Source: Phascolarctobacterium sp.
GTDB taxonomy: Bacteria; Bacillota; Negativicutes; Acidaminococcales; Acidaminococcaceae
Length of the DNA: 64,000 nt
Direction: 5' to 3'
Assembly: GCA_034117325.1 (NCBI GenBank)
Contig: JAXEPX010000009.1
Coordinates: 3,208 to 67,207, forward strand
This document shows positions 6,201 through 47,743 of this stretch, piece after piece; the first letter of the stretch is position 1; every line of letters begins with the position of its first letter. The notes beneath the pieces were generated by a model. That model did no database searches. It saw only the letters and a list, made by a program, of their open reading frames with translations, and was not told where the DNA came from. Both the position numbers and the translations under genes were made by a program.

Positions 6201-7178
6201 ATGGAGAAAAAGAAAATCGGGATAGCTCTTGCTGCTCTGCTAATAGCTGCTGGCGGCTGGTACTATAAGGTAAGCCACGAGGATAACGAGTTCAAGCTAT
6301 ATGGCAATATCGATATCCGTCAGGTAAGCCTCGCCTTTAATGCTAGCGAGCGCATTGCTAAGATGCATGTGGAGGAGGGCGCTAAGGTTACTAAAGGACA
6401 GGTACTGGCCGAATTAGAAACTACTCCCCTTAAACTTAATATTGCTAAGCTCGAGGCGCAGGTTGCAATGCAGCAGGCGCTCGTCGAGAAGCTGGAGAAT
6501 GGCAATCGCCCCGAGGAGATTGCGCAAGCTGACGCTGCCGTACGCGCTGCCGAAGCTGAATTCAATGATGCGCAAATTGATAAGCAGCGCCTGCAAAGCT
6601 TGTATTTAGAAAATGCCATTGCGAAAAAAAGCCTAGACAGTGCTGCTGCTCGCCTAGAGACTGCTGCTGCTAATCTGCGTTCTGCGCAGGAGGGACAGAA
6701 TTTGGCGCATATCGGCGCCCGCTCCGAGGATATTGCGGCTCAAAAGGCACAGCTCCGCGCATACGAGGAGGAGCTGAAGGTGCAAAAATATAATTTAAGC
6801 CAGACGACGCTCGTCGCACCTGTAGATGGCGTGATTCGCTCCCGCCTGCTGGAGCCTGGTGACATGGCTTCTGCGAATAAAGCAGTTTACCTGCTTTCTG
6901 CTAATGAGAAAAAATGGGCACGTGTTTATGTGCCGGAAAAACGGCTCGGATTGCTGAAGGAGGGCATGGCGGCAGAGGTATATAGTGATAGCTTCCCGGA
7001 TAAGCCGCTGCAGGGAAGCGTGGGCTATATTTCTGATACGGCTGAGTTTACGCCTAAATCCGTGCAAACGGAGGAGTTACGTACCGCCCTTCTTTACGAG
7101 GTGCGCGTCAATATCAATGATGAAAATAATGTGCTGCGTATGGGTATGCCCGTGACGGTACGTTTTCCCGACCTTTAA
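6201..7178 (+). CDS. HlyD-family efflux periplasmic adaptor (YbhG-like)
   Basis: N-terminal anchor, LYGNIDIRQV, coiled coil, APVDGVI, AEFTPKSVQTEELR. Confidence 0.9.
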   Translation: MEKKKIGIALAALLIAAGGWYYKVSHEDNEFKLYGNIDIRQVSLAFNASERIAKMHVEEGAKVTKGQVLAELETTPLKLNIAKLEAQVAMQQALVEKLENGNRPEEIAQADAAVRAAEAEFNDAQIDKQRLQSLYLENAIAKKSLDSAAARLETAAANLRSAQEGQNLAHIGARSEDIAAQKAQLRAYEEELKVQKYNLSQTTLVAPVDGVIRSRLLEPGDMASANKAVYLLSANEKKWARVYVPEKRLGLLKEGMAAEVYSDSFPDKPLQGSVGYISDTAEFTPKSVQTEELRTALLYEVRVNINDENNVLRMGMPVTVRFPDL

Positions 7179-7240
7179 GCTTACCTGCATAAAGCAAAGC
7201 TTTGACGCTAGGTTACAGTAGGTTTTAAGGATGGATACTT

Positions 7241-8998
7241 ATGAATAGAAAATTTATTATCAAGGCTACGGGTCTTTCGAAAAGCTTTGCTGCCAAGCAA
7301 GGCCGGGAAATAACCCAAGCCTTGGCTAAGGTGGATATTGAGGCATGCGAAGGCAGTATGACGGCTATTATCGGTCCTGATGGCGCTGGTAAAACTACCT
7401 TTATGCGCCTTGTCTGTGGCCTTTTGAGTCGCACCGAAGGCGAGCTGGAGGTACTGGGGCTGGACGTGCAAAAAAATAGCCAGCGCGTGCAGGAGCAGCT
7501 GGGTTACATGCCCCAACGCTTCGGCCTGTACGAGGATTTAAGCGTGCGCGAAAATATGGATCTCTATGCTGATTTACACGGTATAAGTAAGGAGCTGCGT
7601 GAGCAGCGCTTTGCTAAGCTGCTCGCTATGGCTGGGCTCACGCCCTTTCAGGAACGTCTGGCAGGTAAGCTTTCTGGTGGCATGAAGCAAAAGCTGGGCC
7701 TCGTCTGCACCCTCGTGCGCTCGCCGAAGCTCTTGTTGCTCGATGAGCCCACCGTGGGTGTCGACCCGCTATCACGTCGTGACCTGTGGCAAATTTTACA
7801 GCAGCTCGTGGCCGAGGAAAAGCTTACAGTGCTCGTGAGCACGGCCTATATGGAGGAGGCGGAGCTTTGTGAGCATGTCTATGTGCTGCATAAGGGGCGC
7901 GTACTCGCCCATGGTACGCCAGAGGAGCTACGCCAGCTAACGAGCGGGCAATGCTATAAAATGCAGCTGCCAGAGGGCAAGCCTGCACGGCTTTTGGGCG
8001 CAGCCTTATTAGAGGATCGCGAGCATGTGGTAGATGCGGTGCCCGATGGTGGTGCTGTACGCTTTGTTCTGAAGCAGGGTGCGCAGCTCGAGCAGCTTTT
8101 AGCTTATCGCTATTTAGGCCATTTGCATACGCAACGTGTACCCTCCCGCCTCGAGGATAGCTTCATGCTGCTTTTGCACGAGGCTGAGCAGGAGAATCAG
8201 GGCGTTAGCATTGCTGTTGATTATCAGCAGGGCGTTAAGCTGCACACCGAAAAGGATATTGAGGTAAAAAATCTCTTACGCAAATTCGGTGATTTCATTG
8301 CTGTTAATCGCACCAGCTTTGACGTGCATCGAGGCGAAATTTTTGGGCTATTAGGTCCTAATGGCGCCGGTAAAACCACTACCTTTCGCATGCTGTGCGG
8401 CCTTTTGCCGGCTAGTGATGGCGAGGCGCAGGTAGCAGGAATGAATATGCGCACGGCCAGAACGCAGGCGCGTGCTAATTTAGGCTATGTGGCGCAGAAG
8501 TTTTCTCTCTATAGCGACCTTAGTGTGGACGAAAATCTACGCTTTTTTGGCGGTGCCTATGGACTTTTTGGCAAAAAATTAGCAGAGCGGATGGAGAGTG
8601 TCAAAGGGCTTTTTGGCCTGACGCATTTGAGTGATGTGCAGGCGGGTAGCCTTCCTGGTGGCTATAAGCAGCGTCTCTCCATGGCCGTGGGATTGATTCA
8701 TGGGCCGCGCATTCTCTTTCTCGACGAGCCCACAAGTGGTATTGATCCCTTGGCGCGCAGAGAGTTCTGGCGCCAGATTACAGCGCTTGCCGCTAGCGGC
8801 ACGACGATTATCATTACCACGCACTTTATGGATGAGGCTGAGTATTGTGATCGCATGATGATTCAGGATGCAGGCACCTGCATTGCGATTGGCACGCCGC
8901 GAGAAATCCTGCGACAGGGAAAAGATGCCAGCACGATGAACGATGCCTTTATTGCCATTGTGGAGCAGGGTAGAAGCAAGGAGGCGCAGCATGCATGA
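7241..8998 (+). CDS. ABC transporter ATP-binding protein with two NBDs (YbhF-like)
   Basis: Walker A GPDGAGKT and GPNGAGKT; LSGGMKQK and LPGGYKQR signatures; two LDEPT. Confidence 0.93.
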   Translation: MNRKFIIKATGLSKSFAAKQGREITQALAKVDIEACEGSMTAIIGPDGAGKTTFMRLVCGLLSRTEGELEVLGLDVQKNSQRVQEQLGYMPQRFGLYEDLSVRENMDLYADLHGISKELREQRFAKLLAMAGLTPFQERLAGKLSGGMKQKLGLVCTLVRSPKLLLLDEPTVGVDPLSRRDLWQILQQLVAEEKLTVLVSTAYMEEAELCEHVYVLHKGRVLAHGTPEELRQLTSGQCYKMQLPEGKPARLLGAALLEDREHVVDAVPDGGAVRFVLKQGAQLEQLLAYRYLGHLHTQRVPSRLEDSFMLLLHEAEQENQGVSIAVDYQQGVKLHTEKDIEVKNLLRKFGDFIAVNRTSFDVHRGEIFGLLGPNGAGKTTTFRMLCGLLPASDGEAQVAGMNMRTARTQARANLGYVAQKFSLYSDLSVDENLRFFGGAYGLFGKKLAERMESVKGLFGLTHLSDVQAGSLPGGYKQRLSMAVGLIHGPRILFLDEPTSGIDPLARREFWRQITALAASGTTIIITTHFMDEAEYCDRMMIQDAGTCIAIGTPREILRQGKDASTMNDAFIAIVEQGRSKEAQHA

Positions 8999-34603: not shown

Positions 34604-34777
34604 ATTCGCAAATTATATATCTCTTCAGTCAACTGAGATTTCTTAACGCGAATTTCGTTGGGAACAATTACGAAATCTCGACAAACTCGCTAACGCTCAA
34701 ACATGTCTCGATTTCTATTGTTCCATCAACTTATTCGCTAAAATCTCAATTCCTTCCGAGATATTATAATTTGCTCA
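34604..34777 (+). repeat. Family-1 palindromic element, copy B
   Basis: ATTCGCAAATTA...TAATTTGCTCA ends with the same core as copy A; arms differ but remain complementary. Confidence 0.88.
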
Positions 34778-34816
34778 ATTTAGTTTAGGAAGATTTTCCG
34801 AAAATAAATTGTTAGG

Positions 34817-34870
34817 AAAGGCGCCCCTTTAGGGGAGCTGGCTGCGAGCGTAGCGAGCAGACTGAGGGGT
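34817..34870 (+). repeat. Family-3 REP-like element
   Basis: AGGGGAGCTGGCTGCGAGCGTAGCGAGCAGACTGAGGGGT. Confidence 0.8.
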
Positions 34871-34899
34871 CATTTGAGCGTTATTTAAGGAGAAAAAAC

Positions 34900-35586
34900 A
34901 TGAGAAAAACTATAAATTTACTAATAATGCTGTTGTGTCTCATTACTTCCGTGAGTGCCCTCGCCGCTCCGAAGGAGGAAATCAGTTCCATTGACGCGCT
35001 GGATAAGGGCGTGGCGGATACGGGCGAGACGCATTTTACGAAGGGCGAGAAGCAGCTGGTGGAGTGCACGCTGCCCTATACGGTGGCAGTGCTGCCGATT
35101 GTAGATACGTCCGGCCTGGAGGGGCGCAGTCGTGAGATGGCGGTGGGCGCAGTGAAGGATGCCTTGAAGAAGAAGTATCCCGGTAAGGCTACGAGTGTTA
35201 CGCACATTGTGAATAATAATCTGCTACAGCAGGCTCTGGTGGCACATCCGATGGAGAATCCCGAGGTGCCGACCTTAAATGAGCTGGTGGCTATTGGCGA
35301 GGCCTGTGGTGCGGACAGGGTAATTTTCGTGAGCATTCTGCCGGCGCGTGAGAAGGAAACGGGCTTTATGGTGATTGCAGGCACGCAGACCTATAGTGCG
35401 ACGGTGCTGATGAAGCTGAAGTGCGTGGATGTGAATGAGGAGAAGTTCCTCTTTAATCAGAATGTGGAGGGCATTGGCTCCTCTACCTCCATTAATTTCT
35501 GGAAGATTGGCGAGCCGAGCAAAGCGAAGGCTGTGAAGCGCGGCGTGAATGATTGCATGGAGTTTTTCCTGACGAGCTTCGAGTAA
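34900..35586 (+). CDS. Exported hypothetical protein (possible TolB-N/CsgG-like fold)
   Basis: Signal peptide ending ...SALA; TVAVLPIVD and GEACGADRVIFV pattern. The fold call is inference. Confidence 0.7.
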   Translation: MRKTINLLIMLLCLITSVSALAAPKEEISSIDALDKGVADTGETHFTKGEKQLVECTLPYTVAVLPIVDTSGLEGRSREMAVGAVKDALKKKYPGKATSVTHIVNNNLLQQALVAHPMENPEVPTLNELVAIGEACGADRVIFVSILPAREKETGFMVIAGTQTYSATVLMKLKCVDVNEEKFLFNQNVEGIGSSTSINFWKIGEPSKAKAVKRGVNDCMEFFLTSFE

Positions 35587-38103: not shown

Positions 38104-38457
38104 ATGATGTTATTTGTATGCTATGCGAAATGCGGGACCTGCAAGAAGGCCGAGAAATATTTATTAGACAAGGGCTTCACGCTGGAAAAACGCGATATTA
38201 AGGAGGAGAAGCCCACCTTAGAGGAGCTCAAGGCGTGGTATAAGGCGAGCGGCCTGCCCCTGAAGCGCTTTTATAACACCAGTGGCAAGCTGTATAAGGA
38301 ATTGAATTTGAAAGAAAAAATCCCCACCATGACTGAGGAGGAGCAGCTGGAGCTGCTCGCTAGCGACGGGATGCTAGTGAAGCGCCCCATCGTAGTCAAT
38401 GGTGAGGATGTGCTTATTGGCTTCAAGGAAGCGGAGTATGCAGAGAAGGGGTTATAA
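38104..38457 (+). CDS. ArsC/Spx-family thioredoxin-fold protein
   Basis: KCGTCKKA CxxC; FYNTSG; DGMLVKRPI. Confidence 0.88.
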   Translation: MMLFVCYAKCGTCKKAEKYLLDKGFTLEKRDIKEEKPTLEELKAWYKASGLPLKRFYNTSGKLYKELNLKEKIPTMTEEEQLELLASDGMLVKRPIVVNGEDVLIGFKEAEYAEKGL

Positions 38458-38510
38458 GGATCAGTGCTCTCTCCGTCAGCTCGGGTTTAGTGAATGCGTG
38501 TATTTACTAA

Positions 38511-38629
38511 ACCCCTCAGTCAGCTTCGCTGACAGCTCCCCTTTGCCCCTAAAGGGATTAGTACGACCAGCACGTTCTCACTGCGCTACGCTTGTGACAA
38601 CGTGGGTCTTAGCGTCAAGGGGAGCCTTT
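38511..38629 (-). repeat. Family-3 REP-like element with a ~70-bp nested insert
   Basis: ACCCCTCAGTCAGCTTCGCTGACAGCTCCCC...AAGGGGAGCC, with an internal hairpin ACGTTCTCAC-TGCGCTACGCTT-GTGACAACGT. Confidence 0.75.
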
Positions 38630-38668
38630 CTTAAGTCTTTACAATGACGGTGCTGTGCAGAGCAGCCT

Positions 38669-39292
38669 TTAGTTAGCTCTAGGTAGCTCTACGTAGGTGG
38701 TGCCGGCGGCGTAGCAGTCGAGGTAGTAGGGATAGTACATCAGGTAGACCTTGCCGTTTTGCAAAATATAGAACTGGCTAACCTCCATCTGCTCAGGCTT
38801 AATATATTCGAGGAAGGGAGCATCGCTGCGGGTTTTCAGGTCGGCCATATATACGGGAAAGCTGCCATTGGCGATGCCGTTATACAGTTCAACGCTGGTA
38901 ACAGGATTAGTAAAGGTGAAATAGGGCACTCGTTCGCCTGTATGCTTGTCGTAGACGATACCATTGTCATAGTACATACCGTGCGCGCCGCCGAGGTAAT
39001 CCCAGGGAGTTATCACAAGGTTTACATAGGTGTCAGTTTCTTCAATGATTTTATACTGGAGTCCAACCTCCACCACCTCAGGATCCTTGCCCTTGGCTAG
39101 CTTTTTCACGTTGTTAACAAAACCGAGAATATCATTATTAATCAAATCAGCAGCTTCCTGGCTTTCCAAAGTGAAGACAGGGTAGCTGCATTTATATTTT
39201 TTGCCCGTTTCCACCTGTTCTGTAATGGCAGCAAAGGCGGTAGCGCAGAGGGTGAATGAGAGTCCGAGAGCGAGAAGCGTCTTTTTGAGCAT
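38669..39292 (-). CDS. Exported protein, DUF3298/RsiV-PdaC-like
   Basis: Signal peptide ending ...TAFA; YPVF...INNDI, DYLGGAHG, YPYYLDCYAAG. Confidence 0.65.
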   Translation of the reverse strand: MLKKTLLALGLSFTLCATAFAAITEQVETGKKYKCSYPVFTLESQEAADLINNDILGFVNNVKKLAKGKDPEVVEVGLQYKIIEETDTYVNLVITPWDYLGGAHGMYYDNGIVYDKHTGERVPYFTFTNPVTSVELYNGIANGSFPVYMADLKTRSDAPFLEYIKPEQMEVSQFYILQNGKVYLMYYPYYLDCYAAGTTYVELPRAN

Positions 39293-39409
39293 GATGGTGC
39301 CTCCTTTTTGTTTGCGTTTTCTAACATTATAGTATAAAATATCATAGTAGTTGTAAAGGGATAAGTTGAGAAATTTTTGCAAATTAAATACAAGCTTTGG
39401 GGGAGTACT

Positions 39410-45220: not shown

Positions 45221-45371
45221 CTAAGATATGTTTTCCGAAAATTTTCTAGAAATTCACGAAAAATGTTCGACTTTTTTGTCAGCCTGTGATATTATATTAC
45301 AGTAATATTGCAAAGCTTACACTTTTGGAGAAATTTTAGTTTGCGAAAGAAAAATTAGGAGGCTTATTTCA

Positions 45372-46247
45372 ATGCAAGAATACAAACCCTTTAAATCCGG
45401 TAAGGTTCGTGAAATGTATGATATTGGTGATAGCATCGTTATGGTTGCTACCGACCGCATCTCTGCTTTCGACGTTATTTTAAAAAATGATATCAAGAAA
45501 AAAGGCACCGTGCTGACCCAAATCTCCAAATTCTGGTTCGATTTTACCAGCGACATCGTGCCCAACCATATGCTCTCCGTAGACGTAAAGGATATGCCTG
45601 AATTCTTCCAAAAAGAGGAGTTCACCGGTAACAGCATGAAATGCAAAAAGCTGGAAATGCTGCCCGTAGAATGCATCGTACGCGGCTACATCACCGGTAG
45701 CGGCTGGTCCAGCTACAAAAAAAGTGGCGAAATCTGCGGTATTAAGCTGCCCGAAGGCCTCGAAGAATGCCAAAAGCTGCCGGAGGTACTCTTCACTCCT
45801 AGCACCAAGGCTGAAATCGGCGACCATGACGAAAATATCAGCGTAGAGCAAAGCATTGAAATCCTCGAGAAGCTCTATCCCGGTCGTGGCAAGGAATACG
45901 CTCTGAAGCTTAGAGATTATACCATTGCTATTTACAAAAAATGTGCTGACTATGCTCTGTCCCGTGGCATCATCATCGCTGACACCAAATTCGAATTTGG
46001 TCTGGATGAGAACGGCGAGGTTGTACTGGGCGACGAAATGATCACCCCCGACTGCTCCCGCTTCTGGCCGCTGGAGGGCTATGAAGTTGGTCATGACCAA
46101 CCCTCCTACGATAAGCAATTCGTACGTAATTGGCTGAAGGAAAACCCGGATTCCGATTACAAGCTGCCGCAAGAGGTTATTGATAAGACCATCGGCAAAT
46201 ATATCGAGGCTTATGAAAAGCTGACCGGCAAAGAATTCAACTTCTAA
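45372..46247 (+). CDS. purC: SAICAR synthetase
   Basis: SGKVRE, ATDRISAFD, ECIVRGY, ADTKFEFG, SRFW, DKQFVR. Confidence 0.96.
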   Translation: MQEYKPFKSGKVREMYDIGDSIVMVATDRISAFDVILKNDIKKKGTVLTQISKFWFDFTSDIVPNHMLSVDVKDMPEFFQKEEFTGNSMKCKKLEMLPVECIVRGYITGSGWSSYKKSGEICGIKLPEGLEECQKLPEVLFTPSTKAEIGDHDENISVEQSIEILEKLYPGRGKEYALKLRDYTIAIYKKCADYALSRGIIIADTKFEFGLDENGEVVLGDEMITPDCSRFWPLEGYEVGHDQPSYDKQFVRNWLKENPDSDYKLPQEVIDKTIGKYIEAYEKLTGKEFNF

Positions 46248-46323
46248 TTTTGTGAAGAAAGTGTAAACTTTGACGCAAAAAGCGAACGTTTAAAAGTTTT
46301 TCACCAAAAATATACAAAAACTA

Positions 46324-46410
46324 TTTACAAGCGATAGTTTCGTGTTGTATAATTTCACCATAAACAACAACGGCGTTGTGGCAATAGCCTTACTGCCGTT
46401 GTTGTTTTTT
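46324..46410 (+). promoter_or_regulatory. Promoter followed by a long terminator-like hairpin
   Basis: TTTACA-18-TATAAT; AAACAACAACGGC...GCCGTTGTTGTTT plus T-run. Confidence 0.6.
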
Positions 46411-46419
46411 ATTTTCTCC

Positions 46420-46670
46420 TTGTAGAGCACAGATGCCGTGAGGAGGAATGGACACTGCCTGCTAGAGAAAAAGCGGCAGGAGCCCGCTAATAATGCAAAA
46501 TAGTGCTCCTATCGTGTGACGCAATTTCCACCGTAGAGAAAAAAGAGGTGGTTCGTTGAAGCGGCCAATTGAGGGGACTTTTAGGTTGCTGAAAGTAAGA
46601 GCACTGCCGGCTGGGGGGCCGGGCGGAAGTCATACGAAGTAAAAATGCCCGCTGGGAGGCGGGTTTTTTT
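46420..46670 (+). ncRNA. Unidentified structured RNA with attenuator-like 3' end (T-box-like)
   Basis: GC-rich non-coding stretch with several hairpins, ending in GCCCGC-TGGGAG-GCGGG-T7; alternative helix CGGG/CCCG + CAU/AUG around a 7-nt bulge. Confidence 0.55.
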
Positions 46671-46705
46671 ATGCGTAAAATACGGCTTAAGACTTATATT
46701 TATGC

Positions 46706-46745
46706 AAAAAAGAGAAGCAGCTGGTGGTAAGCTGCTTCTCTTTTT
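46706..46745. terminator. Bidirectional terminator at the cysK 3' end
   Basis: A5-AGAGAAGCAGC...GCTGCTTCTC-T5. Confidence 0.85.
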
Positions 46746-46810
46746 GAAATGGGATGTGTATTATCTTATAGATAGGGAAGACCTATAATGCAAATTAAAT
46801 TGCTGGCTGC

Positions 46811-47743
46811 TTAGTCCGTGAAGAGCGGAGTGGACAGGTAGCGGTCGCCCGTGTCTGGCAGGAGGACAACTATGGTCTTGCCTTTGTTTTCAGGGCGTTT
46901 AGCAATTACGGTAGCTGCATAGAGGGCTGCGCCGCTGGAGATACCTACGAGTACGCCTTCCTTGTGGGCAATAGCGCGACCGGTAGCAAAGGCGTCCTCT
47001 GCTTCTACAGGAATGATTTCATCGTAAATTTTCGTATTCAGGGTGTCAGGCACGAAGCCTGCGCCAATGCCCTGAATTTTATGCGGACCGGCGATACCCT
47101 TAGACAGCACAGGGCTGGTGGAGGGCTCTACGGCTACAACCTTCACATTCGGATTCTGGGCTTTCAGATATTCGCCAGTGCCGGAAAGCGTGCCGCCGGT
47201 GCCAACGCCGGCTACGAAGAAGTCTACTTGGCCATCGGTATCAGCCCAGATTTCCGGACCGGTAGTAGCTCTGTGGACAGCGGGGTTAGCAGGGTTGGTG
47301 AATTGACCGGGGATGAAGCTGCCCGGTGTAGCTGCTGCCAGCTCCTCGGCCTTAGCGATAGCGCCCTTCATGCCTTTAGCTCCGTCGGTGAGTACGAGCT
47401 CGGCACCGTAGGCCTTTAGCAGATTGCGACGCTCCACGCTCATGGTTTCGGGCATGGTGAGGATGATTTTGTAGCCGCGAGCTGCAGCTACGCTAGCGAG
47501 ACCAATGCCGGTGTTGCCGCTGGTGGGCTCAATAATAGTAGCCCCCGGCTTTAAGAGATCCTTAGCCTCTGCGTCGTCCAGCATGGCCTTGGCGATTCTA
47601 TCCTTAACACTGCCTGCAGGATTGAAATATTCCAGCTTAGCGAGAATTTTTGCTTCCAGCTTGTTTTCCTTTTCATAATTAACGAGTTCTACCAGCGGGG
47701 TACCGCCGATCAGTTGAGTAATGCTAGTATATACCTTTGCCAT
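46811..47743 (-). CDS. cysK: Cysteine synthase A
   Basis: [12 protein letters not shown] lysine, [33 protein letters not shown]. Confidence 0.96.

Follow-up and report, generated by a model that had tools for sequence, protein, structure and literature searches.

A probable new family of structured small RNA encoded downstream of purC in Phascolarctobacterium

Closest described systems and the RNA locus

EutX and Rli55, of Enterococcus and Listeria, are free-standing, trans-acting small RNAs (sRNAs) in which a conditional terminator stands ahead of the functional domain and which exist in short and long forms. In this work we have studied an RNA locus of Phascolarctobacterium sp. that may work in a comparable way, located at positions 46324-46671 of a stretch of 64,000 nucleotides (nt) from contig JAXEPX010000009.1 (assembly GCA_034117325.1), the whole of which is called here the window and whose numbering is used throughout. 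Very probably this is a free-standing gene for a structured sRNA of a family outside Rfam 15. The explanation that we favor as a whole, with a probability of about 0.6, is that of a free-standing sRNA gene that is gated by its leader, linked to purines and provided with a core that acts in trans. The family is new but of a general kind already known, and its leader is arranged in an unusual way. By analogy, its mode of working seems closest to that of attenuator-gated sRNAs such as EutX/Rli55, and its leader recalls sensors of the HMP-PP (hydroxymethylpyrimidine pyrophosphate) type.

The likeness to EutX/Rli55 would lie in the free-standing sRNA and in the terminator placed between the promoter and the functional part. 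However, in those RNAs an adenosylcobalamin riboswitch precedes the terminator, whereas here only ~4 nt do so and no upstream sensor is possible; their functional part is made of ANTAR-binding hairpins, ours of a pseudoknotted multi-helix core, and there is no sequence or model similarity. The HMP-PP (thiS) riboswitch is described as an aptamer embedded in a terminator (PMC6478431). Our locus is similar in having conserved nucleotides in or next to a terminator stem with little extra sequence, and an alternative hairpin of the 5' arm can also be drawn, but there is no Rfam match, thiamin genes are absent from the vicinity, the element precedes a non-coding RNA, and ligand binding is conjecture. 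Since no model or sequence similarity was found, the RNA is a member of neither group.

Other described systems are similar in part. In the Bacillus subtilis pur operon, the leader terminator is governed by a guanine riboswitch; two of our variants (L126 and L136) share with it the paired PurBoxes before the -35, and the leader terminator would add a second layer of control, but the product here is an RNA and not enzymes, no purine riboswitch of Rfam matches, and the window has a single box. The raiA motif (PMC10861870) and OLE RNAs are likewise free-standing and highly structured, with invariant joining regions, their own promoter and terminator and a limited range, although they have no model similarity to our RNA, which is much narrower in range, smaller than OLE and endowed with a leader-terminator module absent from them. 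Finally, T-box leaders (RF00230), to which the initial annotation had likened this locus, are also structured RNAs of ~250 nt in Firmicutes with an intrinsic terminator at the end, but here there is no model match, Stem I is missing, a conserved antiterminator with a UGGN bulge is lacking and no gene related to aminoacyl-tRNA lies downstream; neither is there a recognizable specifier loop, as had been pointed out from the start, the conserved helices being P1-P4 (see below).

Homologues and conserved fold of the core

A scan for purC relatives gave six loci from Phascolarctobacterium species (L001-L006), with the element just downstream of purC in each. Metagenomes scanned for the exact pattern GAAGCGGCCAANTGAGGGG yielded 117 stretches, comprising ~100 true homologues and ~11 G+C-rich chance matches. 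Removal of near-duplicates left 15 sequence variants from Phascolarctobacterium and related Acidaminococcaceae, and the distribution of the family, as sampled so far, is narrow and confined to them. Four lineages are distant (L126/L158, L136/L164, L088/L141, and L174), with purC and mnmA proteins 68–76% identical to those of the window in the same gene neighborhood. The closest relatives of the window purC are 88–95% identical and come from Phascolarctobacterium genomes, and the exact sequence of the window is present in pig-gut metagenomes. The order of the unit is common to the variants: a AAAGTGTAAA box, the promoter, a leader hairpin with its U-run, a variable spacer, the core and an A-tract with a terminator. 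The RNA measures ~310 nt in the window and ~230–250 nt in its relatives.

The fold of the core was tested with two alignments, one made by MAFFT from 11 variants and a model-based one of 31 distinct sequences; the latter leans toward the model, and the MAFFT result agrees with it. With MAFFT, 95.7% of the cells were paired (33–43% with slid partners) and nine pairs had changed on both sides, compared to 3.3±1.2 in shuffles, none of 500 reaching that value. The model-based alignment had 95.5% of the cells paired and 16 pairs changed on both sides versus 5.2±1.4 (0/500). These both-sided changes are carried by the helices P1, P2, and P4, while P2a and P3 vary on one side only and keep their pairing. 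Many pairs are G·U (among the 31 sequences, U·G in all 31 at columns 64-75, UA/UG in 18/13 at columns 20-163, and others) and would be A·C on the minus strand, which identifies the + strand as the functional one. The + strand of the region was also more stable than its shuffles in a folding test (z = -4.6).

All the elements of the core lie on the + strand. P1 joins UCGUGUGAC (46512-46520) to GUCAUACGA (46629-46637), with five of its nine pairs changed on both sides and 98.2% pairing. The P2 hairpin, UCCACC/GGUGGU (46527-46552; 46527-46532 with 46547-46552), has five of six pairs changed on both sides and is 98.9% paired; its loop, 14 nt and A-rich in the window, is A-rich, 12–22 nt long and variable in sequence among the variants. 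It is followed by the mini-hairpin P2a (UCGY-NGAA-GCGG, 46553-46564; 100% paired, with a one-sided change of U·G to C-G in five sequences) and by the single strand CCAAUUGAGGGG (46565-46576), the center of a 23-nt invariant block (46558-46580). This strand is invariant in all variants save for one U/A position and is retained even in the minimal variant L174; it is the candidate binding surface. P3 (ACUUUUAG-GUUG-CUGAAAGU, 46577-46596; 46577-46584 with 46589-46596) is 92.4% paired, and its three variable pairs all change on one side and stay paired, the G-to-A of the window giving A-U. In P4 (CCGGC-UGGGGG-GCCGG, 46607-46622; 46607-46611 with 46618-46622) all five pairs have changed on both sides, and both loop and stem differ in L004, L125, L126, and L136. 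The stretch from P4 to the 3' strand of P1 varies between 5 and 9 nt.

A long-range pairing across P1, between GUGCUC (46503-46508) and GAGCAC (46599-46604), likely forms a pseudoknot, to judge from the variants: a C-G pair of the window is U-A in others, L136 has A-U where others have U-A, and in the minimal L174 both strands are missing together with P3 and P4. A second hairpin, CCAA-UUGAGGGGACUU-UUGG, competes with P3 and is the sole option in L174; covariation cannot choose between the two because the letters of the alternative are all invariant. A conserved open reading frame (ORF) is excluded by the indels of 1–4 nt that homologues carry in the P3 loop, other loops and joining strands, together with the compensatory nature of the changes in the helices. 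A small ORF following a Shine-Dalgarno-like GAGGGG and AUG/UUG (19 aa in L005, 18 aa in the window) was also discarded, as indels shift its frame in L001 and others.

Downstream of the core, an A-tract, an intrinsic terminator (stem 46647-46664) and a U-run (46640-46671, + strand) form the 3' end of the RNA, with compensatory changes in a conserved stem. This is the terminator that the initial annotation had proposed, also recovered by our terminator scan, and it is an ordinary one that does not compete with the core fold.

The view of a structured, independently transcribed orphan RNA is supported, and the Rfam scan and the covariation suggested along with that annotation agree with it: the fold is conserved and covarying, and Rfam 15 has no family for it. 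Nothing reached the gathering score across the whole 64-kb window; at E<=10 the region 46200-46810 gave terminator-driven noise only, without a credible match or a T-box, and there was no credible match either in four divergent homologues (L126, L164, L088, and L094). An ARAGORN scan for tRNA and transfer-messenger RNA (tmRNA) found nothing, and the housekeeping RNAs (6S, signal recognition particle [SRP], RNase P, tmRNA) were rejected, with no match to Rfam models or ARAGORN. Resemblances to SRP helix 8, to the GTPase-associated region of 23S, and to ZTP, THF, or guanine riboswitches were at the level of words and were dropped in view of the lack of any model match. A mobile or phage origin was discarded too: in IMG/VR the core pattern had a single match, due to chance, and no true copy, and the leader pattern had none. 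We found no paper tying Phascolarctobacterium to such an RNA; the portion of the PMC8040213 supplement considered here contains neither the core string nor a candidate resembling it, its single Phascolarctobacterium entry being linked to genes of the hisS/tyrS/trpS type.

According to the model R1, every locus has a single copy of the RNA, 74 purC loci from other Firmicutes lack it, and the window holds no second one that is credible. Weak R1 matches at 34766-34932 of the window (15.8 bits, E ~0.1) and, similarly, at 7829-7989 of L002 are both probably due to chance. Two copies are peculiar. One (L186:1295-1485) has a 5' half of the L081 type and a 3' half of the L082 type, with one covarying P1 pair broken (A·C); probably two co-occurring strains were joined into a chimera during metagenome assembly, or the copy is a natural recombinant. 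The other (L158:401-662) is the RNA variant of L126 in other flanks, preceded by the beginning of a P-type ATPase-like ORF and followed by other genes, reflecting either a rearrangement or a mis-assembly.

Promoter, leader hairpin and a possible purine link

The RNA has its own promoter, as had been claimed: a scan recovered TTTACA-18-TATAAT at 46324-46353 (+ strand), sigma-70-like and matching at 11 of 12 positions, with a start predicted at ~A46360. Across the family the promoter (TTTACAA-17-(G)TATAAT) is near-invariant, with TTTACAA and GTATAATT invariant or nearly so in all variants. Immediately after it comes a feature that the initial annotation had missed, a terminator-like hairpin at 46362-46407 (-25.5 kcal/mol) with a U-run at 46405-46415, on the + strand. 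This leader is found in all 14 variants, ~4 nt past the predicted start, with hairpins of -16 to -29 kcal/mol and U6–8; being a stable G+C-containing hairpin with a U-run immediately after, it is a predicted intrinsic terminator. Its 5' arm contains an invariant AACAACAAYGGNGUUG, most pairs of the stem never vary, and the apical part is variable. The leader motif appears once per locus and always with the core, the two never being apart in 105 loci, and has no exact copy elsewhere in the 64-kb window.

Comparison of the variants revealed no conserved promoter between leader and core, so the core would be made only by read-through. Transcription would start at ~A46360, the first 50 nt would fold as a terminator and most transcripts would end at 46405-46415; transcripts reading through from purC would mostly stop there as well, the window lineage having no other canonical terminator. 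With only ~4 nt ahead of the hairpin no upstream antiterminator can form, and read-through would therefore depend on the invariant arm being held by some factor, be it a small ligand, a protein, or an RNA. Such a factor could stabilize an alternative hairpin of 4–5 base pairs (bp), CAAC-AAYGGN-GUUG, or bind the AAC repeats of the leader 5' arm. Expression would be tied, now or ancestrally, to the purine regulon through a PurR-type operator, and the finished core, compact and pseudoknotted, would display the invariant G-rich strand GAAGCGGCCAAUUGAGGGGACUU and contact a protein, an RNA, or a ligand in trans. The details of gating and trans action in this scheme are tentative. A more specific version, a two-layer sensory RNA of the purine regulon in which a 5' sensor embedded in the terminator gates a core acting as a trans aptamer or protein-sequestering RNA via GAAGCGGCCAAUUGAGGGGACUU, is speculative and unlikely to hold.

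Several other roles for the leader were considered and rejected. A leader peptide (AUG-AAC-AAC-AAC) has AUA, AUC, or GUA as start codon in many variants, the A-run at +3 to +5 that a pyrG-like reiterative transcription would use is not conserved, and pairing of the leader with the P2 stem (ACGGUG/CACCGU) is inconsistent across variants. ANTAR targets consist of two tandem hairpins with hexaloops that carry A at position 1 and G at position 4. Here only one can be drawn (CAAC-AAYGGN-GUUG, 4 bp), there is no upstream room for another, and the tetraloops of the apical stem are variable.

The link to purines comes from the boxes ahead of the promoters. The PurBoxes of the B. subtilis PurR are 14-bp A/T-rich boxes with CGAA/TTCG cores and a spacer of 16–17 bp, just upstream of the -35 (PMC8789054). 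At the purC promoters (45230-45298 in the window, and those of L001-L006) the -35 is immediately preceded by an A/T-rich box whose core is TTCG, and most of them, the window included, have a CGAA box 30 nt further upstream, an arrangement that matches the B. subtilis geometry. L126 and L136 also have this CGAA/TTCG pair at their RNA promoters, 30 nt from center to center and directly before the -35, with the spacing and position seen at purC; since no purC lies upstream in L126, the boxes there serve the RNA promoter. The RNA promoter has retained box 1 in the window (46279-46292, core CGAAC at 46283-46287) and likewise in L001 and L002, and box 2 in these three reads TACA or CACA; in the window the expected site, 30 nt downstream (46313-46316), is degenerate, with TACA in place of TTCG. 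The RNA promoters of the other variants have neither box. A loose single-box consensus was not enriched over the whole window, so the purine case rests on paired boxes at fixed spacing. Overall, this makes a moderate case, from promoter sequences, that suggests an ancestral PurR control of the RNA, possibly weakened in the window lineage.

Some further observations concern the same promoters. At 45226-45298, the purC promoter TTGTCA-17-TATTAT is preceded by an inverted PurBox-like pair (CCGAAA/GTTCGA, 30 nt apart), and the proximal purC box AA(A/C)GTTCGACTTTTT is conserved ahead of purC in L001-L006 and L136. The AAAGTGTAAA box (46258-46267, + strand), ~100 nt before the RNA start and present in nearly all variants including L126, L136, and L088, is possibly a regulator site. 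In L126/L136 it forms a palindrome (AGTGTA-N8-TACACT/TACAAT), and in the window group an ATACAC matching the box adjoins the -35; the box may be the operator of a second regulator.

The spacer between leader and core varies in length and sequence, the leader U-run lying 66–147 nt upstream of the invariant block of the core. In the window it holds a 79-nt insert (46415-46493, + strand) that is exclusive to the window lineage: it is absent from L001-L004, L005/L006 have ~40 nt of unrelated sequence there, and contigs of runs X26 and X27 also contain it. Every string quoted by the initial annotation sits where that annotation had placed it, and several of them turn out to belong to this insert. 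Such is the case of the 5' half of the proposed K-turn (GCCGUGA, 46436-46442), so that the motif is not a conserved one; GCUGAAAGUAAG, also present as quoted, is actually the P3 3' strand. Of the two hairpins described as sharing a UAGAGAAAAA loop, the second (46528-46551) is the conserved P2, with a loop of variable sequence, and the first (46455-46479) exists only in the insert. Likewise, GUGCUC (46503) had been proposed to pair with either of two GAGCAC; that at 46599 forms the conserved pseudoknot and that at 46425 is in the insert. The insert thus repeats both GAGCAC and, in a hairpin, the UAGAGAAAAA loop of P2; it may have arisen from the core by partial duplication and rearrangement, and could compete for the pseudoknot strand GUGCUC.

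Metatranscriptomes indicate that the locus is transcribed. In L006 three RNA-seq runs (X28, X32, and X33), as well as X30 (typed "RNA?"), have contigs that cover it, at depths like those of purC, while the 1 kb after the RNA locus is uncovered by metatranscriptome contigs. The X28 contig spans leader loop, spacer and core (7014-7252). A contig of X26 (a run whose type, like that of X27, is not on record) starts at window position 46361, one base from the predicted start, and includes the insert. As the assemblies are unstranded and of low depth, the contigs show the presence of the RNA and not its ends. Separately, contigs of X30, X38, and X40 end at 7437-7439 of L006 and one of X32 at 7412, in the first codons of the downstream TetR-family gene, probably at a strain-level breakpoint and not at a transcript end.

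Alternative readings and significance

Among 14 variants, the RNA is followed by a convergent gene in 8 (a cysK-like gene, mnmA, a phosphoesterase, or a 201-aa protein) and by a co-oriented one in 5, with unrelated products (an FtsH-like protein, a BadF-type ATPase, a TetR regulator, and a 553-aa protein); in L174 the contig ends before any downstream gene. As these genes differ in identity and direction, we consider the RNA gene free-standing, and the simplest reading of such neighborhoods is that it acts in trans. In the window, a second hairpin terminator (46706-46745) and then the convergent PALP/cysK-like gene (46811-47743, minus strand) follow, so there is no sense gene downstream, in agreement with the initial annotation. 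Its proposal of an antisense control of cysK, made by analogy with the ubiG-mccBA locus, does not fit the differences in downstream genes among the 14 variants, and the RNA would not regulate cysK. It is quite unlikely that the core is the aptamer of a cis riboswitch or attenuator that sets the 3' terminator (46647-46670) and controls the downstream gene or a cysK antisense. The core is indeed aptamer-like, a multi-helix junction with invariant joining strands and a terminator directly after it; some variants have the co-oriented gene, the X30 and X32 contigs extend beyond the terminator in the L006-type strain, and in the window, L001 and L002 the 5' arm of the terminator shows partial complementarity to the nucleotides between P4 and P1. 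Nevertheless, the co-oriented genes are unrelated and most variants have a convergent one, the 3' strand of P1 ends before the A-tract and terminator without overlapping its stem, the second terminator precedes cysK in the window, and the only antiterminator proposed is no better than shuffled controls. This is the helix (CGGG/CCCG plus CAU/AUG) on which the T-box interpretation was built: it is paired in 56.5% of the cells of 16 homologues, a value equaled by 435 of 500 shuffles, its CAU is part of the covarying 3' strand of P1 and its CGGG of P4, and its bulge is CGGAAGU and not of the UGGN type. A decayed or non-canonical T-box, that is, a tRNA-sensing leader that lost its downstream gene, is thus hardly credible, even if the host is a Firmicute, the RNA has a terminator at its end, and in the window one can draw a bulged helix that cannot coexist with that terminator. 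That helix is not conserved and its 5' half belongs to P1 and P4, no T-box model matches at E<=10 or in the homologues, the K-turn partner lies in a lineage-specific insert, and the downstream genes follow no pattern of aminoacyl-tRNA synthetases, amino-acid biosynthesis, or transporters. Nor is the element decaying, given its strong purifying selection with compensatory changes across genera.

On the upstream side lies purC (SAICAR synthetase, Pfam PF01259; 45372-46247, + strand), and the hairpins could in principle be 3'-end elements of its mRNA, a 3' untranslated region (UTR) and terminator instead of a separate gene. purC is directly upstream in most Phascolarctobacterium variants, the window lineage has no canonical terminator between its stop codon and the leader hairpin, and contigs pass from purC into the leader. 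However, the promoter that separates the RNA from purC ranks among the most conserved stretches, in L126 and L141/L088 the gene ahead of the unit is another one (DUF362 or PHP), and in L136 and L174 purC has its own terminator ahead of the unit, all of which make this interpretation very improbable. Closer to the explanation that we favor is a locus with two products, a hairpin sRNA of ~50 nt (46360 to ~46412), active through AACAACAAYGGNGUUG or CCGUUGUUGUU, and a core that is a second RNA, from unregulated leak-through or from processing. In every variant the leader has the make-up of a canonical intrinsic terminator, with a stem conserved in sequence beyond the need of a plain terminator. 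Against it, leader and core are always found together, without a promoter between them, and the X28 contig links the leader loop to the core. We consider it unlikely, while noting that it overlaps our explanation and differs from it only in whether read-through is regulated.

Some points weigh against the leader-gated, purine-linked and trans-acting gene that we favor. The pseudoknot helix is mostly invariant, its support being the two compensatory cases and the joint loss in L174, and among complements of the invariant strand in the 64-kb window none rose above chance and no partner was found. The second PurBox is degenerate in the window lineage and several variants are boxless, so that control by purines was perhaps lost, or was perhaps never a general trait. 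That the leader terminates transcription, and does so under control, is deduced from sequence only, and the hairpin could instead be a stable 5' domain. The RNA evidence consists of unstranded contigs of depth 3–8, for which DNA carry-over is not fully excluded, and the taxonomic range was sampled via purC-linked genome loci and exact-pattern metagenome matches only.

Elsewhere in the window, the intergenic CCCCTCAGTCAGCTTCGCTGACAGCTCCCC (38505-38545) contains a GUCAG-CUUCG-CUGAC hairpin flanked by C-runs and reached a word depth of ~1800-fold in run X25, where numerous contigs diverge to either side of it; its surroundings (38200-39400) had no Rfam match at E<=0.1, and it is probably a short repeat common to many gut genomes.

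Phascolarctobacterium is a common succinate consumer in the human and pig gut and, to our knowledge, RNA regulation in the Acidaminococcaceae is practically undescribed. The locus offers a new and well-supported family of structured RNAs, marked by a likely pseudoknot and an invariant strand of 23 nt, together with a testable link to purine control, and it is unusual in having a sequence-conserved terminator at the very 5' end of a non-coding RNA, with no space for a classical antiterminator. Even if the core binds nothing, it would still be a clean entry for RNA family databases and correct a tempting misannotation as a T-box. If it binds a metabolite or a protein, it would be one more of the few structured RNAs of bacteria with a role outside 5' UTRs, and the two-layer reading, if true, would represent a new class of ligand-binding RNA outside the usual 5'-UTR setting.

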